The notes below the pieces were generated by a model, which had not been told where the DNA came from, made no database searches, and saw only the letters and a program-made list of their open reading frames with translations. The position numbers and the translations under genes are program-made. From a virus, in UHGV virus genome UHGV-0312702: a DNA stretch of 64,000 nucleotides; one strand, written 5' to 3'. Positions 16,617 through 62,917 of the stretch are shown piece after piece (the first letter of the stretch is position 1; every line of letters begins with the position of its first letter).

Positions 16617-16692
16617 TGGAGAATCCGAAGGGACTCGAACCCTTATAAACCTGTTTTGCAGACAGGCACATAGCCATTTCTGTCACGGATTC
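16617..16692 (-). tRNA. tRNA-Cys (anticodon GCA)
   Basis: Hand-folded cloverleaf: acceptor CGGATTC pairs with GAATCCG, T-loop TTCGAGT, anticodon loop CTGCAAA, CCA encoded. Confidence 0.75.
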
Positions 16693-16696
16693 AAAT

Positions 16697-16789
16697 TGGA
16701 GGAAGATACCAGACTTGAACTGGTACACCGATTTCTCAGCTACTGGCAGTTTAGCAAACTGCTCCCTTACCTTTTAGGGTTAATCTTCC
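16697..16789 (-). tRNA. tRNA-Ser (anticodon GCT), class II with long variable arm
   Basis: Acceptor GGAAGAT/ATCTTCC, anticodon stem GCAGT/ACTGC with loop TTGCTAA, long variable arm, T-loop TTCAAGT. Confidence 0.7.
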
Positions 16790-16790
16790 A

Positions 16791-17525
16791 TTATTTCTGT
16801 AATGCGCTCTTCATTTCTGGTGTTGCAATAGTGTCAATCACACCAGTTTTACAAGCATCATCAAACCAGTCTGGTAAGATACCTGCTAAGAACCCATTGA
16901 TATTCGTTTTAAGGTACTCTGCAATAAGGGCAGCTTCTTCTTCAATCATCTGCACAACTTCATCTGCATAAGCTGTAATCTTTGAGATACCTTCATTAAT
17001 CTTACTAACAGCCTGATTAGCTAAATCAGAAACAGTATCAAGACCCTTATCAATAGCATCTTGTAAGTCACTTAATACATCATTAACGCTGTCTAGTGTA
17101 TCATTAATAGCATCAATAGCTTTTTGACCATACTCTGTAGCAACACCCATAATACCGCTGAATGGTGTACAACCAACTTGTTCTCCCGCTGCACCCATAA
17201 CATTGGAATATCCCTTTGCTACCTGCATACGTGATGAAAACTCGTCAATAGACTTTTGACCGTAGTCTGTTAGGGTCTTAGTAGTTGCTGTAGTGCTTGT
17301 CAGACTCGTTGTAAAGCTGTTTAGAAGGACTGTTGTAAGTCCAGCAGCAACAAGTTTTTCCTTCATTGCAGGGTCTGTTACAGAGCTAATAGAGCTTACA
17401 AGTGATGTAGAGGCAGCTACGGTTCCACCTAGAACTGCTGCACCAGTAATAAGGGGGTTAGAAAACCCTTTACCAGTTTTTAAGAGATTAAAAATCTCCT
17501 TACCTTGTCCTGTCATCTCTTTCAT
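16791..17525 (-). CDS. hypothetical Ser/Thr-rich protein embedded in tRNA island, about 245 aa
   Basis: ORF-track start (17588, GTG) would overlap tRNA-Phe; first ATG that clears the tRNA is at 17525. Confidence 0.5.
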   Translation of the reverse strand: MKEMTGQGKEIFNLLKTGKGFSNPLITGAAVLGGTVAASTSLVSSISSVTDPAMKEKLVAAGLTTVLLNSFTTSLTSTTATTKTLTDYGQKSIDEFSSRMQVAKGYSNVMGAAGEQVGCTPFSGIMGVATEYGQKAIDAINDTLDSVNDVLSDLQDAIDKGLDTVSDLANQAVSKINEGISKITAYADEVVQMIEEEAALIAEYLKTNINGFLAGILPDWFDDACKTGVIDTIATPEMKSALQK

Positions 17526-17543
17526 TAAGCACCTTTGAAATTG

Positions 17544-17618
17544 GTAGTCCAGTGGGATTTGAACCCTCTTCTCATGTTTTTCAGACACGCGCTTTAACCA
17601 TATAAGCTACTTGGACTA
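17544..17618 (-). tRNA. tRNA-Phe (anticodon GAA)
   Basis: Acceptor TAGTCCA/TGGACTA, anticodon stem CGTGT/ACATG, loop CTGAAAA, T-loop TTCAAAT. Confidence 0.7.
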
Positions 17619-17623
17619 TAAAT

Positions 17624-17700
17624 TGGGGTGACCTACGGGATTTGAACCCGTATAGACCATGTTCACAGCATGGGTCATTACCATTTATGATAAGGCCACA
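17624..17700 (-). tRNA. tRNA-His (anticodon GTG)
   Basis: Anticodon stem CCATG/CATGG with loop CTGTGAA; discriminator C; CCA encoded. Confidence 0.7.
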
Positions 17701-17730
17701 TTTAAGGACTCTCGTAAGAACCCTTAGAAG

Positions 17731-17806
17731 TGGCAGCGGCATAAGGATTTGAACCTTAATAGGACAGCTTCAGAGACTGTTGCATTGCCAGTTATGCTAT
17801 ACCGCT
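17731..17806 (-). tRNA. tRNA-Gln (anticodon CTG)
   Basis: Acceptor AGCGGTA/TGCCGCT, anticodon loop CTCTGAA, T-loop present. Confidence 0.65.
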
Positions 17807-17811
17807 AAATT

Positions 17812-17890
17812 TGGTACTCCATATCGGATTCGAACCGATACATAACACAGATTTTAAGTCTGGCCTCTCTGCCAATTGGAGTAATGGAGC
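17812..17890 (-). tRNA. tRNA with leucine anticodon TAA but class I architecture (short variable loop)
   Basis: Acceptor GCTCCAT/ATGGAGT, D-arm CTCC-AATTGGCAG-AGAG, anticodon stem CCAGA/TCTGT loop CTTAAAA, 7-nt variable loop, T-arm ATCGG-TTCGAAT-CCGAT, discriminator A. Confidence 0.6.
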
Positions 17891-17892
17891 AT

Positions 17893-17968
17893 TGGCGGGG
17901 GATGTTGGAATTGAACCAACTTCTTCGATTTCAAAGACCGAGGTTTTAACCTTGTAAACTAATCCCCT
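17893..17968 (-). tRNA. tRNA-Gln (anticodon TTG)
   Basis: Anticodon stem TCGGT/ATCGA loop CTTTGAA; T-arm GTTGG-TTCAATT-CCAAC; A1-C72 mismatch. Confidence 0.65.
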
Positions 17969-17976
17969 TTAAATCT

Positions 17977-18534
17977 TTACTTTCTTAGTGGATGAATAAA
18001 GAATGCCAACATAACTCTTTCCCTTGAGAATGCTCTTTCTTCTGGGACAACACTTTTAAGTTTCCACCCAACATAAATTCTCCAGTAAAATTGTTTACCA
18101 AAGACTTTAATTGATGGGATAAAAGCAAATAATCCCCAAGCATTGCTGTTCCACATTAGGAGATAACCTGTCTGATTATCTTCAGGGTTAGAACTTACGT
18201 TGATATTACCTTTCCACTTAGTAACATCTTTTACATCTCTTCCTAACACATGGTAAGAGAAGTTATAAGCTTTGTTTCTCCAGAGCCATCCAACTCTCTG
18301 CATATAAACACCGAGCTTACCAATCTTTCTAATCTTAGCCCATCGTTTGATATGACCTGCATCACCATCAATTGGGTTGTCATAAGTCTCCATCCATCTG
18401 AAACCAAAAGGCAGATGACCTTTCTTCTCACTGTAGAATGGGACTACGAAAGGTGCTAAGATAACTGCCAAGATTGCTGCAAATGGCTCTAACAAAGCTA
18501 AGAAAATCCATGAAGCATACTTCAAATATCTCAT
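17977..18534 (-). CDS. hypothetical membrane protein embedded in tRNA island, 185 aa
   Basis: ORF with hydrophobic N-terminus (IFLALLEPFAAILAVILAPFVVPF). Confidence 0.5.
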   Translation of the reverse strand: MRYLKYASWIFLALLEPFAAILAVILAPFVVPFYSEKKGHLPFGFRWMETYDNPIDGDAGHIKRWAKIRKIGKLGVYMQRVGWLWRNKAYNFSYHVLGRDVKDVTKWKGNINVSSNPEDNQTGYLLMWNSNAWGLFAFIPSIKVFGKQFYWRIYVGWKLKSVVPEERAFSRERVMLAFFIHPLRK

Positions 18535-18773
18535 TGTCTAATCCTAGTAAGGAGGTAAACATTATTATTTGTTTCTGAGTTTTCTGGTAAAGCTGTCTCA
18601 AAATTGACGCTTTTAAATTGTCTCCCACCAAAGTAATGACCAATAAATTTTTGTACTTTTATTGGGTCACATTCCCAGCCAACTTTCAAGAAAATGTGGG
18701 TATCTATAGTGGGAACCCTTACAAACTCAATACTATTGGAATTTTCATGTTCAACGACGATTAATGTTTGCAT
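18531..18773 (-). CDS. hypothetical protein, 80 aa
   Basis: ORF overlapping the start of the downstream gene by 4 nt. Confidence 0.4.
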   Translation of the reverse strand: MQTLIVVEHENSNSIEFVRVPTIDTHIFLKVGWECDPIKVQKFIGHYFGGRQFKSVNFETALPENSETNNNVYLLTRIRQ

Positions 18774-18791
18774 AAATCTCTCTTATTTATC

Positions 18792-18867
18792 TGGCGCAGG
18801 ATAAGGGACTTGAACCCCTATTAACAGCTTCGTAGACTGTTGCTCTATCCATTTGAACTAATCCTGC
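18792..18867 (-). tRNA. tRNA-Arg (anticodon ACG)
   Basis: Acceptor GCAGGAT/ATCCTGC, anticodon loop CTACGAA, CCA encoded. Confidence 0.7.
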
Positions 18868-18872
18868 AAAAT

Positions 18873-18950
18873 TGGTGTTCCAAGACGGATTCGAACCGTC
18901 ACTAGTACAAGGTTTGAGCTTGCATCCTCTGCCAATTGGGATACTGGAAC
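18873..18950 (-). tRNA. tRNA with leucine anticodon CAA but class I architecture
   Basis: Acceptor GTTCCAG/TTGGAAC, D-arm TCCC-AATTGGCAG-AGGA, anticodon stem GCAAG/CTTGT loop CTCAAAC, 6-nt variable loop, T-arm GACGG-TTCGAAT-CCGTC; only 84 nt available between flanking tRNAs. Confidence 0.6.
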
Positions 18951-18951
18951 A

Positions 18952-19026
18952 TGGTACTCACTAAAGGACTTGAACCTTTTTCTTCATCTTGTAAGGGTGA
19001 TGTTTTACCATATAAACTAAGCGAGT
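18952..19026 (-). tRNA. tRNA-Val (anticodon TAC)
   Basis: Acceptor ACTCGCT/AGTGAGT, anticodon loop CTTACAA, T-arm AAAGG/CCTTT. Confidence 0.65.
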
Positions 19027-19122
19027 GTGAAAGAGGTCTGAAGTTGTGCCACTAACTCAACTCCGTGGAATTTGTTACGGTCTTCAGTTGACTCAAAGTG
19101 GTCTTTCACTTGACCTCTGAAT
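19027..19122 (-). ncRNA. candidate structured small RNA in tRNA-cluster spacer (not a tRNA)
   Basis: 96-nt spacer with complementary ends (AGAGGTC ... GACCTCT) and nested complementary segments (GTGAAAGA/TCTTTCAC, CTGAAG/CTTCAG); no T-loop motif. Confidence 0.3.
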
Positions 19123-19198
19123 TGGTGCTCCCACAAGGATTCGAACCCTGATAAGTTGCTTACAAGGCAACCGTAATAGCCAATTATACGATAGGAGC
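19123..19198 (-). tRNA. tRNA-Thr (anticodon TGT)
   Basis: Anticodon stem GTTGC/GCAAC with loop CTTGTAA; T-loop TTCGAAT. Confidence 0.7.
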
Positions 19199-19205
19199 AT
19201 TAATT

Positions 19206-19280
19206 TGGAGCATCCAGAGGGAATCGAACCCTCAACCTCAGTTTGGAAGACTGTAATTTTCCCGTTTAAACTATGGATGC
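19206..19280 (-). tRNA. tRNA-Gly (anticodon TCC)
   Basis: Acceptor GCATCCA/TGGATGC perfect 7 bp, anticodon loop CTTCCAA. Confidence 0.7.
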
Positions 19281-19286
19281 ACTAAT

Positions 19287-19362
19287 TGGTGGAGAAGCAG
19301 GGAATTGAACCCTGTACTTAAGTTTGCAAAACTTATGTTTTAACCATGTAAACTACATCCCC
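19287..19362 (-). tRNA. tRNA-Ala (anticodon TGC)
   Basis: Anticodon stem TAAGT/ACTTA loop TTTGCAA; G3-U70 wobble pair present (Ala identity element); T-arm CAGGG-TTCAATT-CCCTG. Confidence 0.7.
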
Positions 19363-19368
19363 AATGTT

Positions 19369-19444
19369 TGGTACAGGTGGAGGGAATTGAACCCATCGTC
19401 TTACTGATTAAGAGTCAGCCGCATAACCATTTTGCTACACCTGC
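19369..19444 (-). tRNA. tRNA-Lys (anticodon CTT)
   Basis: Acceptor GCAGGTG/CACCTGT, anticodon loop CTCTTAA. Confidence 0.65.
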
Positions 19445-19451
19445 ATTAATT

Positions 19452-19528
19452 TGGTACACCTAGAGAGATTCGAACTCACACTGAGCAGATTCTAAGTCTG
19501 CTGCCTCTACCAGTTGGGCTATAGGTGC
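19452..19528 (-). tRNA. tRNA with leucine anticodon TAG but class I architecture
   Basis: Acceptor GCACCTA/TAGGTGT, D-arm GCC-CAACTGGTAGA-GGC, anticodon stem GCAGA/TCTGC loop CTTAGAA, 5-nt variable loop. Confidence 0.6.
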
Positions 19529-19786
19529 ATTAAATCTTTTTAGAGAACTTCTAAGAACCTAAGCAACAAGGTTCCACAACAAGCTGTAATAACCTTAGAA
19601 GCCCTCTAAAAAGACCTAAAAAGGTCTTTGCATAGTCTTGTTTAATCCGGTGACTAGAACCTTTGGAGAGCTTGATATTATCTCTTCTCCGTGACACCTA
19701 CTAGGTGCTTTACTGTGCGTGTACGACAATACACGAGGGATACCAAAGCAACATCCGAATGAAGCTTGGCTTTAAATCTTATTAGG

Positions 19787-19874
19787 CGGTAAGTAAAGGA
19801 GTCGAACCCTCACCGTATCTCTACAGTGGCAACTGTTTTCAAGACAGTTTGGCTACCATTAGCCGCTACCTACC
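19787..19874 (-). tRNA. tRNA-Ser (anticodon TGA), class II
   Basis: 88 nt, acceptor GGTAGGT/ACTTACC, anticodon stem ACTGT/ACAGT loop CTTGAAA, long variable arm; CCA not encoded. Confidence 0.6.
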
Positions 19875-19887
19875 CCTAATAAGACTT

Positions 19888-19970
19888 TGGCATGGGACGG
19901 AGGAGTTGAACCCCTTTGAAACGGTTTTGGAGGCCGTTGCTCATGCCTTAGAGTCTTAACATCGTCCCAC
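19888..19970 (-). tRNA. tRNA-Trp (anticodon CCA), atypically long 5' half
   Basis: Acceptor GTGGGAC/GTCCCAT, anticodon loop CTCCAAA, T-arm GGGG-TTCAACT-CCTC; D-arm region about 7 nt longer than canonical. Confidence 0.5.
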
Positions 19971-20112
19971 ACTATAATTCGAAACTTACCGTATTATCTC
20001 AACACTGTAAAGCCCCTTCTCAGATTATTTACATGTTCTGGAAAACATGAGATACAGACCACCTCCCTACAGGAAGACCCGCTTAGGTCGTCTAAGTAAT
20101 CTGCTAACTAAT

Positions 20113-20189
20113 TGGCACACCCTACAGGATTCGAACCTGTAACTAACGATTTAGAAGACCGTTGCTCTATCCAATTGAACTAAGGGTGC
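20113..20189 (-). tRNA. tRNA-Arg (anticodon TCT)
   Basis: Anticodon stem ACGGT/ATCGT loop CTTCTAA; acceptor GCACCCT/AGGGTGT. Confidence 0.65.
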
Positions 20190-20526
20190 ATTAATCTTTA
20201 AAGACTCTCTTAGAAAGCCCTTAAAGATGCCCACCTTATTAATCATACCGTGGGCTAGTACGCCAAATTCTTTGATGAGGGATTGGAAGACCTCACTGGT
20301 GTTTAGCCTATCAAGCTACTGCCAGAAAAACATTGTCGTTTGCATTTATTTTAAATTTGCAAAATAGACGCTACGCAACGAAAACTATTCAGAATATGTA
20401 CAACAAATTTCCCCACATTGTGTTACGTCTAACGCTCATGTATTGGTGTTTGAATTATACATATTATGAATTATTTTTAGTTACTATAAAGTAGTCACAT
20501 CTCAATGTCAACAACTTTATTGAAAT

Positions 20527-20601
20527 TGGTTGTAGGTGAGGGTATCGAACCCTCTTCTAACGGTTATCAGCCGTTTGCATTACCATTTATGCTAACCCAC
20601 A
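20527..20601 (-). tRNA. tRNA-Ile (anticodon GAT)
   Basis: Anticodon stem AACGG/CCGTT loop CTGATAA; T-arm GAGGG-TTCGATA-CCCTC. Confidence 0.7.
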
Positions 20602-20602
20602 A

Positions 20603-20680
20603 TTGGAGGTTCAGGTGGGAATCGAACCCACATTCATAGGGCTTATGAAACCCCTGCATTACCTTATCTGCGACTGAACC
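20603..20680 (-). tRNA. tRNA-Met (anticodon CAT), elongator-like
   Basis: Perfect acceptor GGTTCAG/CTGAACC, anticodon stem GGGGT/GCCCT loop TTCATAA. Confidence 0.6.
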
Positions 20681-20684
20681 ATAT

Positions 20685-20760
20685 TGGTAGAAGTGGAGGG
20701 ATTCGAACCCATCGCCTGTCAGATTAAAAGTCTGCCGCATCACCATTCTGCTACACTTCC
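20685..20760 (-). tRNA. tRNA-Lys (anticodon TTT)
   Basis: Acceptor GGAAGTG/CACTTCT, anticodon loop CTTTTAA. Confidence 0.65.
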
Positions 20761-20909
20761 ATTAAATTATCTTTGTAGATAAGCTACCCAGACTTGCTTA
20801 AGGTCTGTAGCGATGTGCCTTGTTGGGTTTAAATCTAGAATTTACCCTTTCACCCTTTGTGGTCGCATACTCACAGGTAAGCTTAATAGCTCACCTACAA
20901 AGATAATTA

Positions 20910-21041
20910 CCAGACCGTTGTTTATCATCTTAAGTGCTACCATTACACCAACTCGACATCTGCCGAGTGAAGGAATCGAACCTTCGCCTTTTCTTTACCG
21001 GAGAAATAGATTGTTTAAGTTTTGCTGTAAACGGTCTTCTG
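20910..21041 (-). repeat. bounded spacer unit D (CCAGACC ... TGCTGTAAACGGTCTTCTG) containing a tRNA-like T-arm
   Basis: Shares both end motifs with units at 21055, 21484, 21637; contains GAAGG-AATCGAA-CCTTC (tRNA T-arm signature at 20969-20985) but no canonical anticodon loop or acceptor pairing. Confidence 0.5.
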
Positions 21042-21054
21042 TAAATTTGTTGAG

Positions 21055-21128
21055 CCAGACCAAGTTTTAAATTTTCAAAATTAAATTGGCTTGAAATTTC
21101 ATACATTCTTGCTGAATTTGGTCTTCTG
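21055..21128 (-). repeat. bounded spacer unit A (CCAGACC ... TGCTGAATTTGGTCTTCTG)
   Basis: Same terminal motifs as units B, C, D; the two ends are mutually complementary (AGACC/GGTCT). Confidence 0.5.
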
Positions 21129-21215
21129 CTCCTTTAAAGAATACTCGCAAGAACTCTTTAAGGGAGGGGCTAAATAGCCCTCTCAAAACATCATTTTGAA
21201 ATACTTATTATAATT

Positions 21216-21293
21216 TGGCGGTTACGAAGGGATTTGAACCCTCATCATCTCCCGTGACAGGGGAGTATTTTAACCAGATTAAACTACATAACC
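21216..21293 (-). tRNA. tRNA-Asp (anticodon GTC)
   Basis: Anticodon stem CTCCC/GGGAG loop CTGTCAC; acceptor GGTTATG/CGTAACC. Confidence 0.65.
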
Positions 21294-21298
21294 TTTAT

Positions 21299-21386
21299 TG
21301 GTGTGCCGTGTAGGAGTCGAACCTACCGAGTCTCAATGACAAGGGATTTACAGTCCCCACCGCTACCATCTACGGGATAACGACAC
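21299..21386 (-). tRNA. tRNA-Tyr (anticodon GTA), class II
   Basis: 88 nt; acceptor GTGTCGT/ACGGCAC, anticodon stem GGGA/TCCC loop CTGTAAA, long variable arm. Confidence 0.65.
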
Positions 21387-21395
21387 ATTTTAATT

Positions 21396-21472
21396 TGGCG
21401 GTTAGTCAGGGATTCGAACCCTGTGCCATTCGCTTAACAGGCGACCGCACATACCTTATGTGCTTCCTAACC
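21396..21472 (-). tRNA. tRNA-Asn (anticodon GTT)
   Basis: Anticodon loop CTGTTAA; T-arm CAGGG-TTCGAAT-CCCTG. Confidence 0.65.
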
Positions 21473-21483
21473 TTAATACATTG

Positions 21484-21542
21484 CCAGACCGTGTTTTTCT
21501 TTTATCCGCAAAAAGTAGTTTGTTGCTGAATACGGTCTTCTG
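21484..21542 (-). repeat. bounded spacer unit B (CCAGACC ... TGCTGAATACGGTCTTCTG)
   Basis: 59-nt unit between tRNA-Asn and the second CAT tRNA with the same end motifs. Confidence 0.5.
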
Positions 21543-21548
21543 CAAAAT

Positions 21549-21625
21549 TGGAGGCGGGTGCAGGAGTCGAACCTGCCGATACCATGCTAATGAGACATGT
21601 GAGACGCCCTTTCTCTATACCCGCA
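21549..21625 (-). tRNA. tRNA with anticodon CAT, second copy (initiator Met or Ile-lysidine type), atypical
   Basis: Anticodon stem CATGT/GCATG loop CTCATTA (pyrimidine at 37); acceptor pairs only with a 1-72 mismatch or a 1-nt register shift; D-stem GAGA/TCTC. Confidence 0.5.
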
Positions 21626-21636
21626 ATTCTTAATGA

Positions 21637-21709
21637 CCAGACCAAATCTCTTCTTTGTCCGATTGAATGTCAGATGAATAAGATTAAATTTGCTGTAATT
21701 GGTCTTCTG
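21637..21709 (-). repeat. bounded spacer unit C (CCAGACC ... TGCTGTAATTGGTCTTCTG)
   Basis: 73-nt unit between the CAT tRNA and tRNA-Glu with the same end motifs. Confidence 0.5.
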
Positions 21710-21716
21710 TCAAAAC

Positions 21717-21791
21717 TGGTGTCGTAGACAGGATTCGAACCTGCGAGCAACTGATTGAAGGTCAGGTGGCTAACCATTTGCCTTCTACGAC
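21717..21791 (-). tRNA. tRNA-Glu (anticodon TTC), C at position 33
   Basis: Perfect acceptor GTCGTAG/CTACGAC, anticodon stem CTGA/TCAG with loop CCTTCAA. Confidence 0.55.
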
Positions 21792-21792
21792 A

Positions 21793-22149
21793 TTAAACCA
21801 TTGTAATTCCACTATGAACCTCTCTGTGGCAATTAGCGCATAGCAAAACACATTTATCAAGTTCTTTTTTAACCTTTTCCCAAGATGCACCCATAAGTTT
21901 TGATGGTGTATTCTCTTTTTCGTTTGGGTTAAGGTGATGCCATTCTAAAGCATTTTTACATTTATTATAGCCACAAATTATGCAACTATCGCCATAAAGC
22001 TTATATGCTTTCTCCCTATTGGCATCCTCTCTAAGTTTTGTCCTTAATGCACAACATTTTAGACAATTTACTCTATTACCGGCGTTACCATTCTTATGAA
22101 TGCTATGTTCAGTTAAACCATGAACTGGACATTCTTTTAAAAATCTCAT
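21793..22149 (-). CDS. HNH homing endonuclease, about 118 aa
   Basis: Cys-rich zinc-finger region plus HNH motif (EWHHLNP ... LLCANCHREVH); ORF-track start at 22227 overlaps tRNA-Pro, so the start is placed at the ATG at 22149. Confidence 0.7.
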   Translation of the reverse strand: MRFLKECPVHGLTEHSIHKNGNAGNRVNCLKCCALRTKLREDANREKAYKLYGDSCIICGYNKCKNALEWHHLNPNEKENTPSKLMGASWEKVKKELDKCVLLCANCHREVHSGITMV

Positions 22150-22166
22150 AGTAACCCCTTTAAATT

Positions 22167-22243
22167 TGGTCTCTGTTGGAGGACTTGAACCTCCGGCCTT
22201 ACCGCCCCAAACGGAACGCTCTACCAAGCTGAGCTAAACAGAG
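22167..22243 (-). tRNA. tRNA-Pro (anticodon TGG)
   Basis: Perfect acceptor CTCTGTT/AACAGAG, D-arm GCTC-AGCTTGGTA-GAGC, anticodon loop TTTGGGG, T-arm GGAGG-TTCAAGT-CCTCC. Confidence 0.75.
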
Positions 22244-40179: not shown

Positions 40180-40228
40180 TTTTGATTCTCCAGTTTAGGA
40201 AGTGGGCTTGATTGCCCGTCTGATGCAA

Positions 40229-40257
40229 ATATTAGATAACCATACTCAAAGAGTCAA
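40229..40257 (-). promoter_or_regulatory. candidate sigma70-type promoter driving the small-gene array
   Basis: On - strand TTGACT, 17-nt spacer, TAATAT, about 45 nt upstream of the ATG at 40179. Confidence 0.45.
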
Positions 40258-40429
40258 TAGGAATTTTAAAAATATTTTTGCAAAAATTGTAATGAAACGG
40301 GCGCATGCGACTACCACAAAACAGAACTACAATCAAGAATTATTTTTCAATCCGCTACAAATTTTTCTGTTGACTTTTATTTCCAGATGTGGTAGCCTTG
40401 TGAGAAATGGCGACATCCCCACCTGTACC

Positions 40430-40630
40430 CACCTACCTGCACAATTCTAAAATGATTTTTCTTGCCCGACCTGAGCGGGGTCTGCACGTTTTGAAAATGA
40501 AAAAGCTCTTTGGAGATTACCTGCACAGTTTGAAAATGAATTTTCTCTTTGGAGTTCAAAATTTTCTCTACAGATTTCTGTCCAGAACTCTACCTGCACA
40601 ATCCTGAAATGAAAAAGCCCTCCTTACCTG
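40430..40630. repeat. tandem direct repeats (ACCTGCACAnTTnnAAAATGA...CTCTTTGGAG), about 4 copies
   Basis: Copies at about 40435, 40481, 40518, 40591 in a 500-nt ORF-free interval. Confidence 0.5.
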
Positions 40631-40685
40631 AAAAATTTACCAGATAAAAAAGGCTTAGTCTATTGTGAATATCTTACAGATTTTC

Positions 40686-41471
40686 TTAGTTCTTTGCGTC
40701 TAAGAAGGTAACTTCTGATGATGAGAAAATTTCCTCAACATCCTCATCAGTTCTTGCATAGATATATGTATCTGCATCACTGCCAAATGTTACTGCAATC
40801 CTGTGATTGTTCTTTGACAGGTGGGTAACTAGAGCGTTACTCAGAGACATCTTTTCAACCGGAGGGTTACTTTGATGTATCTTACCTTTTCTTCGTCTGA
40901 AGAGGGTAACTGTATTGTCTGTGAACGTTACTACACCTGCAAAGTATTCTGGTTCACAGTAGTTCTTCCAACCTGAGCGTAACTTGTGGTACATCTCTCC
41001 TTCATAGACATACAGATACACATCTACACTCTTCATCACCTGATTAATGATAACTGTGACGGCTTGAGGGTCAAGCCCACCGATACCTGCACCAATCATA
41101 GGTAACCCGACTTTCTTCAACTGATTGACTTCACAGTATCTGTTAAGCTGTTTCAAAGATGACTCTAAAGCACTGTATCGGGCATCTTTACCAGTCTTAA
41201 GCTGAGTGTAAAGGTTAGCTATACGGCCTTGTTTTAAACGTGCTACAGAGAAATTACCTAGTAGATTTTCACAGGGTTTGTTGCCTATACCACCTGCATA
41301 CAGATAGACTTCTGTATCAGTTTCATATGCTTTTGGGTAAAATTTAGAAATCTTGTCAGCAATACCTGCACCCATTAAATTCATACAGTTGCAGCCATGA
41401 CCAATGATATCAAATTTACCTTTATCAAATGCGTCAAAAATACTACCATTGATGATTTTTACAATACCCAT
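40686..41471 (-). CDS. macro-domain-like protein (putative ADP-ribose binding/processing), 261 aa
   Basis: N-terminal IVKIINGSIFDAF ... DIIGHGCNCMNLMGAGIA resembles the macro-domain Gly-rich ADP-ribose-binding motif; assignment from motif memory only. Confidence 0.45.
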   Translation of the reverse strand: MGIVKIINGSIFDAFDKGKFDIIGHGCNCMNLMGAGIADKISKFYPKAYETDTEVYLYAGGIGNKPCENLLGNFSVARLKQGRIANLYTQLKTGKDARYSALESSLKQLNRYCEVNQLKKVGLPMIGAGIGGLDPQAVTVIINQVMKSVDVYLYVYEGEMYHKLRSGWKNYCEPEYFAGVVTFTDNTVTLFRRRKGKIHQSNPPVEKMSLSNALVTHLSKNNHRIAVTFGSDADTYIYARTDEDVEEIFSSSEVTFLDAKN

Positions 41472-41708
41472 TTAGCATCTCTCCCAAGATTCTTTATCTT
41501 CTGAAGGTTTTACACGTTGCCCTTCGTGGTCTACCCAGATACACCCGCAACCTTCACAGATTACTGGCATTGCATAACCAGCTTTAAAGTCATCTTCAGT
41601 GATAAGACCTTTTAAGTCACCTGTATCACGTCCAAACATTTCGATAGAACAATCTTTGCAGAAGTCAGCCATGAATAATTGCCTCTTGAATGATAATACC
41701 TTTACCAC
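41472..41708 (-). CDS. hypothetical zinc-ribbon protein, up to 78 aa
   Basis: CKDC ... CEGCGC cysteine pairs. Confidence 0.4.
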   Translation of the reverse strand: MVKVLSFKRQLFMADFCKDCSIEMFGRDTGDLKGLITEDDFKAGYAMPVICEGCGCIWVDHEGQRVKPSEDKESWERC

Positions 41709-43505: not shown

Positions 43506-44201
43506 TCAATGTTTAACTAACATGGTTTTGATGTGTGGAAGGATTCTGTTAACCTTCTGCACATTCTTCTCTGTATCTTCTATAAAACATACTATATCAA
43601 AGTAAGGCAGAATGCAAGACTGAATCATCCGTACTTTCAAACTTTCTGCACTTATAGAGTTAGTTCCAAAACCACGCATAAAAAGCATGTAGTCATGCTC
43701 TGTGTTATGCCTTAAAAACATCTCAGTAGGTATTCTCTGAGATTCACCCCTTGCTGTCAAGAGTCCAATGGCAGCATGATTAGCAATTGCATCAATAATA
43801 TTGAAAACATACGTTGGTTTTGCTCTTACAGAGTCAAGAAGGTTAGTATACTGTGAAAATGACCCATCAGTCAATTCCGTTGAGCAATCTTCGTGATTAA
43901 AATTTGTAAGAACACCATCAATATCTGCCAAGATAAGGTTGCCTTTCTCCACAAGGTCTTTATTGACTATGACTAAACTATCACGCCTTACACCTATAGT
44001 TTGTCCAGTCTCTTTGTCCATAACGTTCACAATTGGTTCTGATGTGTGGAACTCTTCAAGTGAACATACAACCTCTCTTGCAGTATCTTCAAAGTCTCTA
44101 CACTGCTCTGGAGTCCATATGCCAGAATCAATACCTAACTCATGAGGATGCAAGTCATAAGCATGGCACAGTACTTCATCAGACTTTCTTAATTTTTTCA
44201 T
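43506..44201 (-). CDS. HAD-superfamily phosphatase-like protein, 231 aa
   Basis: HAD motif I LILADIDGVLTNF (DxDGV/T) in the middle of the protein. Confidence 0.45.
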   Translation of the reverse strand: MKKLRKSDEVLCHAYDLHPHELGIDSGIWTPEQCRDFEDTAREVVCSLEEFHTSEPIVNVMDKETGQTIGVRRDSLVIVNKDLVEKGNLILADIDGVLTNFNHEDCSTELTDGSFSQYTNLLDSVRAKPTYVFNIIDAIANHAAIGLLTARGESQRIPTEMFLRHNTEHDYMLFMRGFGTNSISAESLKVRMIQSCILPYFDIVCFIEDTEKNVQKVNRILPHIKTMLVKH

Positions 44202-48958: not shown

Positions 48959-50740
48959 TTAAAGCTGCTTGTCAATATTATTTCGAATATCACCAAGAGA
49001 TGTGTAACCATACTGCTCAGAATCACTAAAGACTAAGCGTAGAGCACAAGCTGGATGTTCAAGTGCATCTGCAAAGCTTTGGAATCCATAGCCATCTACA
49101 GCTTTCAGTTTATCACCATCCCACATAGGTGCTACACCACCAAAAGCAGACTTCTTAACACCACTATCTGTTTTAGGGTCTTTTGCAAGCATAATCTCTT
49201 TACCACCAATGCTTGCAAGAGTTGCTTTAACAGCAAATGCAAAGGTGTCACGAGTCATGTACTGGTAAGTGTAAGAGCCTACGCCAAACACTACGTTAGA
49301 GCTTGCAAAACCCATTTCATACAGACGCTTCAGGATTTCGTTTGCACGTTCCAGTGTGATAGAGTCACCATAGATAAGGCCAATATGTTCATCCAGTACC
49401 TTAAAACCTTTGGAGTTGATAGTCCCTCCGAAGATGTTATACAGAGTCTTAATAGCTCCATCAATCTCTGCTACAGGACGTGTTACAACGTTTGCAGAAC
49501 CAACCATATAAGCATTTTTCAACATCACTGTATCGGCAACTTCAAAGTCTTCTCGGTCAACAACCATTTCGTAGCCTTCTGACAGTAGCCATCCAGCAAT
49601 ACCATAGCTGATGTTTTCAAGCTTCATATTCAGAACAGCATTTAACATTGTGTCGCTGGCTTCCAGCTTACTAAGGTGCTCATAATAAGCCTTTTTAGCG
49701 CACTCTAAGTGGATTGCTTTATAACCTGTGACAATATGTACAGGGTCTCCAGAGTCAGGACGAATTACCAGTTTACCGTCACGTTCCATAATCTCTTTGC
49801 GAAGTGCTGGTAAGATTTCTGACACAGTTCTCCAGAAGTTATAAGTATCTGAAACAACACTTGCAATACCAGTCGGGTAAGTCTCTGTTAAGAAACGACG
49901 GAAGGTCTGCAACTCACCTTTAAAGCGTCTTTCCTCTTCAATCAATTCATTACCACCTTCCCAAGCAATGTTTGCACACATTACAGAGTGTTCAGTGGCT
50001 GGTACAGAACCACCAATATCAGAGATTGGGTAAGACTGTCCGTAGATGCGTTTAGCTGTATATACAGCAGGGAAGCTATCAGTTCCTTTAAAGCTGGTCA
50101 AGTGGCCTACAGCATTAAATGCGTCATCAGTAAAGCCTGACATACCACGCATAGCAAAGTCATGGCACTGATAAGGTAAATGCAAGTCATTGTCACAAGT
50201 AAGGTCAGCCCACTTCTTACAGATACGTTTGTAGTGCAATGCAATAGTTGCAATGGTACAAGCCTTCCAAATTTCAGCAGAGAAAGAATCTTCCAGATAC
50301 CCCGCTACCCAATGGAAGCCTGAAACAGTATTCTGGAAGACAATCATTGGGACACGCATAGGGACAACTGTGCCTTCTTCTACAGCGTATACTTCAACTG
50401 GCAGATAACCTAAGTCGTGAAGTGCTTCCCAATGTTCTCGACCAATAGCATCTTTACCCAGAACACCGTTCATGACTTCTAAGATTTCGTCAATTGCTTC
50501 TTTTTTGTCACGCTCAAAGAAAGTGGCGTTCCAATGGTCTACCAAGTAATCTTTAACAAAGCGTTGAATACCAAAAGCTACTACACCGTCAATTGCTAAG
50601 GGGCTGTTAAACCATTTGTCACTACGTGGTGTCAGGTTGAACATCAAGTACTCTGTTGCGCTAGGATACTGGTAAACATGACCAGATTTGTAAGCATCTG
50701 CATTCAAACCTGCTGGTACTGCATAAAGTGATTTAGTCAT
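48959..50740 (-). CDS. nadV: nicotinamide phosphoribosyltransferase-family protein (Nampt/NadV-like, or the Nampt-homologous Namat), 593 aa
   Basis: Length and overall similarity to Nampt-family proteins from memory; paired with a Prs-like gene immediately upstream. Confidence 0.7.
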   Translation of the reverse strand: MTKSLYAVPAGLNADAYKSGHVYQYPSATEYLMFNLTPRSDKWFNSPLAIDGVVAFGIQRFVKDYLVDHWNATFFERDKKEAIDEILEVMNGVLGKDAIGREHWEALHDLGYLPVEVYAVEEGTVVPMRVPMIVFQNTVSGFHWVAGYLEDSFSAEIWKACTIATIALHYKRICKKWADLTCDNDLHLPYQCHDFAMRGMSGFTDDAFNAVGHLTSFKGTDSFPAVYTAKRIYGQSYPISDIGGSVPATEHSVMCANIAWEGGNELIEEERRFKGELQTFRRFLTETYPTGIASVVSDTYNFWRTVSEILPALRKEIMERDGKLVIRPDSGDPVHIVTGYKAIHLECAKKAYYEHLSKLEASDTMLNAVLNMKLENISYGIAGWLLSEGYEMVVDREDFEVADTVMLKNAYMVGSANVVTRPVAEIDGAIKTLYNIFGGTINSKGFKVLDEHIGLIYGDSITLERANEILKRLYEMGFASSNVVFGVGSYTYQYMTRDTFAFAVKATLASIGGKEIMLAKDPKTDSGVKKSAFGGVAPMWDGDKLKAVDGYGFQSFADALEHPACALRLVFSDSEQYGYTSLGDIRNNIDKQL

Positions 50741-50785: not shown

Positions 50786-51682
50786 TCAATCAATGGTTGC
50801 TACAGTCACTTGGCTATAATGTGTTAAGCCACGGTCCTTAGCTTCACCTAAAGTGTTTGTAGTGTAGATATGGTCTATTCCATTGTCAAGCAAGTTTTCA
50901 ACACCTTTAGAGAAAATTCCATGAGTTACATAGAGTTCCACACGTTTTGCACCCGCTTCACGAAGATGTTTAGCTGCTTCTATGAAGGTTCTACCGCCAT
51001 CACAAATATCATCAAGAATCATGACAGTTTTATCTGTCAAATCAACATCATCAAGGATTCTCATACCAGTAATCTCACCAGTCTTAAGGTTACGTACCTT
51101 AGACATTGTGATATATGGTTTATCTACTTCTTTAGCGGTATCTTCAGTCTTCTTAGCTGCACCTGCATCTGGGGCTACCAAGAAATCAATACGTGGGTCA
51201 CTTGCAAAGTGTGCTGCCACATCTTTTTGCTTCATACTCTGGAAGCACTTAAATAAGTTTTCCGCAACATTGCTGTGAGGGTCAAGAGCGCATACTGCAT
51301 CAAAGCCCATTGCATTAACGAGGTTGGCAAAAACTTTCAGTGCTGCCGAATCACCTTTGAACATGTGACGGTCATATCGAGCGTTTGGTAGGTATCCGAA
51401 AACAACGGTTTTCATCGCTGATTTATGGGGAACAAGACTGTCAACAACATCCTTAGCAAGAGCTAATGCAAATAGTGTATCTTTGTCATATCCCTGCACA
51501 GTGAGTATAACATTATCAATCTTACCAGCATTACGCTCAGTAAACTTAACAAAATCTTCAGAGAAGTTTCCACCAATTTCTCCAGATGGGAATTGGATAA
51601 TGTTAAATTTTTCTGCGTGGAAGAATTTCTCTTGTGCGGTGACAACGGCTTCAATAACAGTTTTCATAGTTTTCTCTCTCAA
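50786..51682 (-). CDS. prs: ribose-phosphate pyrophosphokinase-family protein (Prs-like, or the Prs-homologous Adps), 298 aa
   Basis: PRPP-binding motif VMILDDICDGGRTF ... AGAKRVELYVTHGIFS and ALDPHS motif, as in PRPP synthetases. Confidence 0.75.
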   Translation of the reverse strand: MREKTMKTVIEAVVTAQEKFFHAEKFNIIQFPSGEIGGNFSEDFVKFTERNAGKIDNVILTVQGYDKDTLFALALAKDVVDSLVPHKSAMKTVVFGYLPNARYDRHMFKGDSAALKVFANLVNAMGFDAVCALDPHSNVAENLFKCFQSMKQKDVAAHFASDPRIDFLVAPDAGAAKKTEDTAKEVDKPYITMSKVRNLKTGEITGMRILDDVDLTDKTVMILDDICDGGRTFIEAAKHLREAGAKRVELYVTHGIFSKGVENLLDNGIDHIYTTNTLGEAKDRGLTHYSQVTVATID

Positions 51683-62419: not shown

Positions 62420-62917
62420 TCAAGCACAGTTTGCTTTCATTACCTTATGGATTCTTTTTTCAGCATCTTCATAAGTTTCTTTAGTAATAAACTTAATTGC
62501 TGCAATATTGGCATTGTAGAAGAGTCTGAGCTTAGAGTCAATCCTTTTTGTCATTACATCGAATTTATGTTGGAGGTTTGCTTCACCATAAACTAGACCA
62601 CCTTTTGTGTAGTAGGTCTGAATAATGTAAAAGTCAAAAAATTCTTTTCCAAAACTCTCAATATCTTTTTTAATATACTCAGAAGAAGTCTCATAAGTCA
62701 TCCAATCACTCTCCTTAGTGACTACCTTCTTCCGAGTCTTGCCAGCAACCTTTCTTTTAGTCACACTATTAAGCTGTTTCTTTCCAATATAATATTGTCC
62801 GGTTTTCTTACAGTGTACTAAATAGACAAAGCCAAAATGTTTAGTGGGGTCAACTTCCCCACATAAAGATACCCAATGACCATAGGTAGGGCAATTGCCA
62901 AATCCTTTAATCTTCAT
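62420..62917 (-). CDS. GIY-YIG-like homing endonuclease, 165 aa
   Basis: FVYLVHCKKTGQYYIGKK has the GIY-(10 aa)-YIG spacing, followed by a conserved Arg. Confidence 0.45.
   Translation of the reverse strand: MKIKGFGNCPTYGHWVSLCGEVDPTKHFGFVYLVHCKKTGQYYIGKKQLNSVTKRKVAGKTRKKVVTKESDWMTYETSSEYIKKDIESFGKEFFDFYIIQTYYTKGGLVYGEANLQHKFDVMTKRIDSKLRLFYNANIAAIKFITKETYEDAEKRIHKVMKANCA

Follow-up and report, generated by a model that had tools for sequence, protein, structure and literature searches.

The gene located at positions 40686..41471 (minus strand) of a 64,000-nucleotide stretch of the viral genome UHGV-0312702 (the whole stretch is called the window here) raises the question of whether its product removes ADP-ribose adducts left by a host toxin, feeds the NAD+-rebuilding enzymes of the phage, or does both. 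In the first-pass annotation, made from the letters and the open reading frames, the product was described as a macro-domain-like protein, a candidate counter-defence enzyme against ADP-ribosyltransferase toxins or a partner of NAD-related enzymes encoded 8 kb away. Membership of the PHROG 335 macrodomain family is near certain, and the gene is of a known kind with a lineage-specific two-domain architecture.

Genomic setting of the macro gene

The macro gene is complete in the open reading frame list, with an ATG start and 261 codons plus stop. The source phage belongs to Felixounavirus, the FelixO1-like myoviruses that infect Escherichia and Salmonella, and the macro region was matched by 231 phage records, mostly at 90-95% nucleotide identity, in which the gene has been named 'phosphatase', 'macro domain-containing protein' or 'hypothetical protein'. 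Its orthologue in phage Bas63 (bas63_0095, 261 aa), annotated as 'putative phosphatase' or 'macro domain-containing protein', shares 95% amino-acid identity. A Shine-Dalgarno-like GGGAGAG was read from the sequence 7 nt 5' of the ATG (41479..41485, minus strand), and a consensus scan gave weak evidence of a terminator-like hairpin with a T-run behind it, 30 nt 3' of the stop (40615..40656, minus strand). No Rfam match was obtained in or near the gene. The macro gene belongs to a long leftward block on the minus strand that includes rIIA, rIIB, a gene annotated as polynucleotide kinase (PNK), spanins, nrd genes and a pair annotated as 'Prs' and 'Nampt', identified below as NARP1; its position in this block suggests early expression.

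A small ORF precedes the macro gene, and its stop codon runs straight into the macro ATG (TAAATG). This Cys-rich ORF of 66 aa (41472..41672, minus strand) has a zinc-ribbon-like CxxC...CxxC arrangement and is kept in Bas63 and Moogle. A different small CxxC...CxxC ORF overlaps the macro start in the divergent contig L004 (7810..8001), and Kolesnikvirus and another contig are devoid of such an ORF at this place. The Cys-rich ORF could encode a co-translated partner of the macro protein, or the arrangement could be a coincidence. On the other side of the gene, in the non-coding stretch 40180..40685, a motif of about 30 nt, TACCTGCACA(A/G)T..(A/G)AAATGA, occurs in three to four direct copies (40434..40627), the final one overlapping the terminator-like hairpin. 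Three pattern matches were counted against 0.1 expected by chance, with none elsewhere in the 64 kb window, and the motif gave no Rfam match.

Other genes of the window were also considered. The PNK-annotated gene (43506..44201, minus strand) encodes a 231-aa protein that related records call 'polynucleotide kinase'. Neither Pfam nor NCBIfam gave a match to it at E<=0.01, and its homologues in divergent contigs gave only weak or faint HAD_PNKP matches; throughout Ounavirinae the gene keeps its place, with rIIB on one side and the macro gene on the other. The 25 tRNA genes clustered at 16617..22243 (minus strand) are typical of FelixO1-like phages. A 165-aa ORF (62420..62917, minus strand) is the counterpart of a phage SME50 gene deposited as 'NAD synthetase'; this annotation is wrong, and the protein has a SegE-type GIY-YIG endonuclease domain (Pfam PF19835, E 9.4e-28).

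The 'Prs'/'Nampt' pair corresponds to the two enzymes of NARP1, a pathway defined in Bas63 (10.1101/2024.02.11.579819), a phage placed in Felixounavirus by the NCBI taxonomy (MZ501086), where genes 79 and 80 encode the Prs-like Adps and the Nampt-like Namat. In the window, Adps (ADP-ribose pyrophosphokinase; 50786..51667, minus strand) is 97% identical to Bas63 gp79, and its translation probably begins at the codon-6 ATG, the listed ORF starting at a TTG five codons upstream. Namat (nicotinamide ADP-ribose transferase; 48959..50740, minus strand) is 98% identical to Bas63 gp80 and matches PDB 9w5w/9w5x at E 5e-127. On the same strand, 7.5 kb and 15 genes separate its stop from the macro gene downstream, and bas63_0095 likewise lies 15 genes 3' of Namat on the same strand in Bas63. 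The alternative that the pair represents NARP2 (Nampt plus Nmnat) was rejected in favour of NARP1 of the Bas63 type; the window ORFs that were scanned included no NMN adenylyltransferase. The NAD-related enzymes mentioned in the first-pass annotation are therefore those of NARP1, and a partnership with them gains support by homology, since a member of the macro family, Adpp, feeds NARP1.

The macrodomain, its active site and the fused C-terminal domain

The macrodomain occupies residues 1-157 (41001..41471, minus strand). It matches Pfam PF01661 with 33.1 bits against a cutoff of 22 (E 6e-8) over residues 25-141, covering 116 of the 118 profile positions, and it has the three-layer alpha/beta/alpha macro fold. 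The initial call of a macro-domain-like protein has thus been borne out by profile search, fold and motif. A profile of the family matched TARG1 (8e-17), Mycobacterium tuberculosis DarG (4e-16), Poa1p (2e-15), SCO6735 (4e-15) and Thermus aquaticus DarG (5e-13), which places the domain in the TARG1/DarG/Poa1p branch of macrodomains, also called ALC1-like or ALC1/TARG1-like. In NCBIfam and PADLOC only DarG models were matched (2.7e-12 and 5.9e-13), and with the PADLOC model the macro protein scored above Tk.4 of phage T4. That the protein is itself a DarG was rejected because its score with the NCBIfam DarG model NF048014 (46.6 bits, model positions 14-153 of 338) is far below the equivalog cutoff of 250, because DarG K80 is missing and because there is no DarT neighbour; no ADP-ribosyltransferase or DarT gene is annotated within 12 kb in the orthologous records.

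DarG sequences recovered from PDB alignments were aligned by MAFFT with TARG1 and the macro protein. The N-terminal motif noticed in the first reading, DIIGHGCNCMNLMGAGIA (residues D21-A38; 41358..41411, minus strand), aligned with both proteins and is the glycine-rich ADP-ribose-binding loop 1, as had been proposed. Within it, H25, G26, N28, C29, G36 and A38 were invariant in 32 homologues, and N28 (codon 41388..41390, minus strand) is equivalent to DarG N22 and SCO6735 N27. The phosphate-binding glycine-rich loop 2 (P124-L133, PMIGAGIGGL; 41073..41102, minus strand) aligned to DarG PPLGAGNGGL and TARG1 PRIGCGLDRL, with P124, G127 and G129 invariant among the same homologues. With the segments MGAGIA (33-38) and IGAGIGG (126-132) aligned to the corresponding DarG and TARG1 loops, two intact glycine-rich loops line the predicted ADP-ribose cleft.

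Two points were absent from the first reading, namely a second domain (residues 158-261) and a glutamine at the position of the DarG/TARG1 catalytic lysine. In the NLYTQ motif, Gln90 (codon 41202..41204, minus strand) aligns with K80 of DarG (PDB 5M3I, 5M31/5M3E, 7OMU) and K84 of TARG1, and Gln90, Asn28 and both glycine-rich loops were invariant across the 32 homologues. TARG1 D125 is a glycine in the macro protein, as it is in DarG. The replacement of lysine does not imply inactivity, because SCO6735 of Streptomyces coelicolor (PDB 5E3B) is highly active with a glutamine (Gln85) at the catalytic-lysine position. Gln85 is essential in that enzyme, which efficiently hydrolyses thymidine-linked ADP-ribose on DNA, is inactive as the Q85A or N27S mutant and protects against DarT (PMC9411070). 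The correspondence of N28/Q90 with N27/Q85 of SCO6735 is a transitive one, established through the alignment with DarG N22/K80 and the equivalence given in that paper. SCO6735 thus resembles the macro protein in its ALC1/TARG1-like branch and in the Gln that replaces the catalytic Lys together with its partner Asn. It is a stand-alone enzyme with no paired toxin that guards against DarT-type thymidine ADP-ribosylation, but it differs from the macro protein in that it is cellular, lacks the C-terminal orphan domain and has a mobile loop that is longer and contains two lysines. Another member of the branch, yeast Poa1p (PDB 6LFQ), is a eukaryotic ADP-ribose 1''-phosphate phosphatase that clears a by-product of tRNA splicing; it shares about 24% identity with the macro protein, and the Tpt1 pathway is not evident in the phage. 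A macrodomain of phage PhiKZ, gp104, keeps the catalytic lysine (K78) where the macro protein has glutamine; this chimallivirus protein has also been named AdfM and removes DarT2 adducts in vitro (PMC13309987).

The C-terminal domain (residues 158-261; 40689..41000, minus strand) was modelled as a linker helix followed by six beta-strands and one helix. Its pLDDT was 85-94 inside the full-length model and 75 when modelled alone, a difference that suggests packing against the macrodomain. It was present in all Ounavirinae-like homologues, where it diverges fast (16-24% identity between subgroups), and its conserved residues (N170, P174, F177, G179 and Y236) are mostly close to the linker. The pI of the domain ranges from 4.6 to 9.5, so that it is no obvious DNA mimic or DNA binder. 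Searches by sequence and by fold, which included PDB chains, gave no detectable relative, the domain occurred neither by itself nor in fusion with a different partner, and no similarity to the DarT-binding domain of DarG was detected. It is the only new element of the macro gene and may add substrate or partner binding.

Placement within the Tk.4/AdfM-Adpp family

The macro protein is included in PHROG 335 ('phosphatase') with an E value of 3.6e-111. The same family takes in T4 Tk.4 (1.3e-65), the Adpp protein of Vibrio phage Gary and the macrodomains of Pakpunavirus and Saclayvirus, and homologues of the macrodomain were found in about 2,800 phage records. In T-even phages the homologue adjoins vs and is annotated tk.4. 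Tk.4 of T4/T2 aligned with the macro protein over Tk.4 residues 2-152 with 33% identity (77 bits, E 2e-22). In the HIDEN-SEQ study, tk.4 has been renamed AdfM (anti-DarT factor Macrodomain), and a clean adfM knock-out sensitised T4 to DarTG2, which is genetic evidence from a preprint (10.1101/2025.11.20.689424). The earlier suggestion of counter-defence against ADP-ribosyltransferase toxins is therefore supported by homology, through a 33% identical protein that T4 needs against DarT2. A literature search found no paper linking DarTG with Felixounavirus. Tk.4 and the macro protein share the HGCNC...NLYTQ motifs with the Asn and Gln residues, the GAGIGx second loop, the short loop after Gln and the match to DarG HMMs. 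Tk.4, however, is a single domain of 155 aa, compared with 261 aa and an extra C-terminal domain of about 100 aa, and T2/T4 have no NARP1 near tk.4 whereas the Felixounavirus with the macro protein encodes it.

A second function has been described in PHROG 335. In phage Gary, the Poa1p-like macrodomain protein Adpp, encoded in an Adps-Adpp-Namat operon, converts ADPR-1''-phosphate into ADPR, as determined biochemically, and lets NARP1 overcome the aRES defence (10.64898/2026.01.28.702374). Adpp (KNV71_gp137) and the macro protein are both Poa1p-like macrodomains of PHROG 335 with the Asn/Gln pair, and both phages encode NARP1; unlike the macro protein, Gary Adpp lies between Adps and Namat, consists of a single domain and has NVYGQ, a loop 7 residues longer and GCGLAGGD. 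It is 27% identical to the macro protein (51.6 bits) and 35% identical to Tk.4 (77 bits). By bit score the macro protein is closer to Tk.4 (77 bits) than to the tested Adpp. In the Adpp preprint, a macro gene was considered when it lay within two genes of Adps/Namat, and Felixounavirus is absent from the resulting Table S1 (10.64898/2026.01.28.702374); the macro gene of the window, 15 genes and 7.5 kb away, lies outside that distance.

The neighbourhood of the family members varies among phages. Adps, Namat and macro genes are adjacent in this order in four genera (Thalassavirus, Pakpunavirus, Saclayvirus and that of a Kassivere-like phage), while no NARP1 was found within 5-6 kb of the macro gene in T2/T4, an Aeromonas T4-like phage, two Vequintavirinae, CBA120 and PsgM04F. 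In Ounavirinae, sampled as Felixounavirus, Kolesnikvirus and one divergent metagenomic contig, NARP1 (or Namat) and the two-domain macro gene co-occur about 7-10 kb apart with the order kept. A Mooglevirus record and a second contig showed the same rIIB-to-macro order, the sequence ending before NARP1. RNA ligase genes also turn up repeatedly near PHROG 335 macro genes and NARP1, at distances of a few kb, in Thalassavirus, Pakpunavirus, Saclayvirus, Kassivere-like phages and Vequintavirinae, which suggests a recurring early 'NAD/ADPR and RNA-repair' neighbourhood. An RNA-repair (Tpt1/KptA) context for the macro gene itself was rejected because no such gene is annotated in the Felixounavirus regions inspected. 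In addition, a metagenomic homologue of 339 aa (P0027) carries a Tk.4-type NLYTQ macrodomain fused to a cREC_REC domain (Pfam PF20274, E 4.7e-7). This 'cyclic-phosphate processing receiver' fusion may be a sign that soluble phosphate derivatives of ADPR are the substrates of some family members.

Several sequence criteria were considered for telling AdfM from Adpp. A neighbour-joining tree with 100 bootstraps supported shallow clades only, the deep nodes being unsupported, and did not separate AdfM from Adpp. Pairwise bit scores were equidistant: the macro protein scored 77 bits with Tk.4, 77 with the Kassivere macro and 70 with the PS3 macro, the latter two being linked to NARP1. Loop length was rejected as a marker of substrate because SCO6735 acts on DNA with a long loop (PMC9411070). 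The motif class does discriminate between Tk.4-like and NARP1-embedded macrodomains. The protein of the window, all those of Ounavirinae and Tk.4 have NLYTQ, a short loop after Gln and GAGIG(G/K) as second glycine loop, whereas NARP1-embedded macros have N.YGQ (NAYTQ in Saclayvirus), a loop 4-7 residues longer with Y-x-Y/W, and G.GL(A/G)G. With NLYTQLKTGKD and GAGIGGLD, the macro protein lacks the N.YGQ/NAYTQ, Y-x-Y/W and G.GLAGGD features of the operon-embedded class. Among the macros of Table S1 (about 129), NLYGQ was counted 75 times, NVYGQ 30, NAYTQ 11, NLHAQ 4 and NLYTQ 2, and the two proteins with NLYTQ have the long loop; the class combining NLYTQ, a short loop and GAGIGG is essentially absent from these NARP1-embedded macros.

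Proposed role and alternative explanations

The most likely role of the macro protein, with a probability of roughly 0.45 in our analysis, is of the AdfM type, that is, the removal of DarT2 thymidine adducts, and it is ranked above an Adpp role. The macro gene represents the phage Tk.4/AdfM-Adpp macrodomain family in the form found in Ounavirinae. Once infection has begun, thymidines in single-stranded phage DNA would be ADP-ribosylated by a DarT2-type toxin of the host; the N-terminal macrodomain would bind ADP-ribose through its two glycine-rich loops and cleave the group on C1'' of the distal ribose, stripping the thymidine adducts and allowing replication to continue. Catalysis would follow the SCO6735 scheme and not the lysine scheme of DarG and TARG1, with Asn28 fixing the rotamer of Gln90, and Gln90 hydrogen-bonding the ring oxygen of the distal ribose and placing the substrate so that water can attack it. 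The fold, the family, the intact loops, the N28/Q90 pair and the conserved gene order are observations, while the substrate, its target in vivo and the time at which the gene is expressed are those that we infer for the macro protein.

An Adpp-type role is somewhat less likely. The macro protein would then be the ADPR-1''-phosphate phosphatase of a 'split' NARP1-AP pathway, in which an aRES-type RES-domain defence phosphorolyses NAD+ to nicotinamide and ADPR-1''P, the macro protein removes the phosphate and the phage NARP1 (Adps, then Namat) rebuilds NAD+ from ADPR. The presence of both NARP1 genes in the same gene block of this phage, 97% and 98% identical to gp79 and gp80, is consistent with such a pathway, as is the adjacency of the family to NARP1, in the same order, in four unrelated genera; the macro gene, however, stands 15 genes (7.5 kb) from Namat and outside the operon, Table S1 of the preprint has no Felixounavirus, the NLYTQ/short-loop/GAGIGG class is essentially missing from its NARP1-embedded macros, and the tested Adpp is less similar to the macro protein than Tk.4 is. 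Moreover, most family members are found in phages with no NARP1 nearby, such as the T-even phages, so that support of NARP1 cannot be the general role of the family. The AdfM and Adpp roles may nevertheless co-exist. Both reactions cleave a C1''-linked leaving group, which makes a dual activity plausible, and macrodomains are often promiscuous.

Hydrolysis of some other ADP-ribose conjugate or derivative is rather unlikely. The candidates are ADP-ribosylated RNA (CmdT-type or uracil/phosphate-linked), ADP-ribosylated protein, O-acetyl-ADPR, the ADPR-cyclic-phosphate products of RNA repair and an ADPR-based immune signal. Relatives in this macro branch, such as TARG1, act on many 1''-linked substrates (PMC11833690), the survey of Iyer and Aravind predicted soluble ADP-ribose derivatives as the main targets of phage macrodomains (PMC9503650), and the cREC 'cyclic-phosphate processing' fusion of P0027 agrees with this view. 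RNA ligase or PNK genes recur near family members in several phages, the PNK-annotated gene being 2 kb away here, but the Felixounavirus regions inspected carry no annotated Tpt1/KptA or RNA ligase. One paper describes SCO6735, an enzyme with the same Gln active site, as inactive on 2'-OH-linked ADP-ribosylation of RNA and is inconsistent about its activity on phosphate-linked ends (PMC11833690), and experimental precedent for such substrates is lacking inside PHROG 335. Least probable is a non-catalytic, stoichiometric binder of ADP-ribose or of a toxin, sponging an ADPR-derived molecule or blocking the toxin through the C-terminal domain. The exchange of the DarG/TARG1 lysine for Gln90 and the fast evolution of the extra domain (16-24% identity between subgroups) would fit such a binder, and SCO6735, DarG and TARG1 inhibit DarT by interaction even when they are catalytically dead (PMC9411070). 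The glutamine, however, is compatible with high activity in SCO6735 (PMC9411070) and is present in the active Gary Adpp, and the invariance of all the ADP-ribose-contacting motifs fits an enzyme.

A two-pronged protein may also be considered, though it is a speculative reading with a low probability. The macrodomain would clear the lesion (dT-ADPr on DNA and/or ADPR 1''-phosphate) while the C-terminal domain would independently bind a partner, which may be the DarT2 or aRES toxin, single-stranded DNA or the replisome, or the NARP1 enzymes; the C-terminal domain of DarG, which binds DarT, is a model for the toxin-binding variant. If true, such a protein would connect two arms of Ounavirinae counter-defence, that of DNA ADP-ribosylation and that of NAD depletion.

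Typing, biocontrol and therapy directed at Salmonella and E. coli make use of FelixO1-like phages, whose counter-defence repertoire therefore affects host range. With bas63_0095, a member of the AdfM/Adpp family is available in Bas63, the BASEL phage that led to the discovery of NARP1 and that is genetically tractable, and the predictions for this gene are resistance to DarTG2 and/or to aRES. Two published functions fall in one protein family with distinguishable sequence classes, which raises the question of bifunctional enzymes, and the lineage-specific fused domain could reveal a new mode of targeting or regulating a macrodomain.
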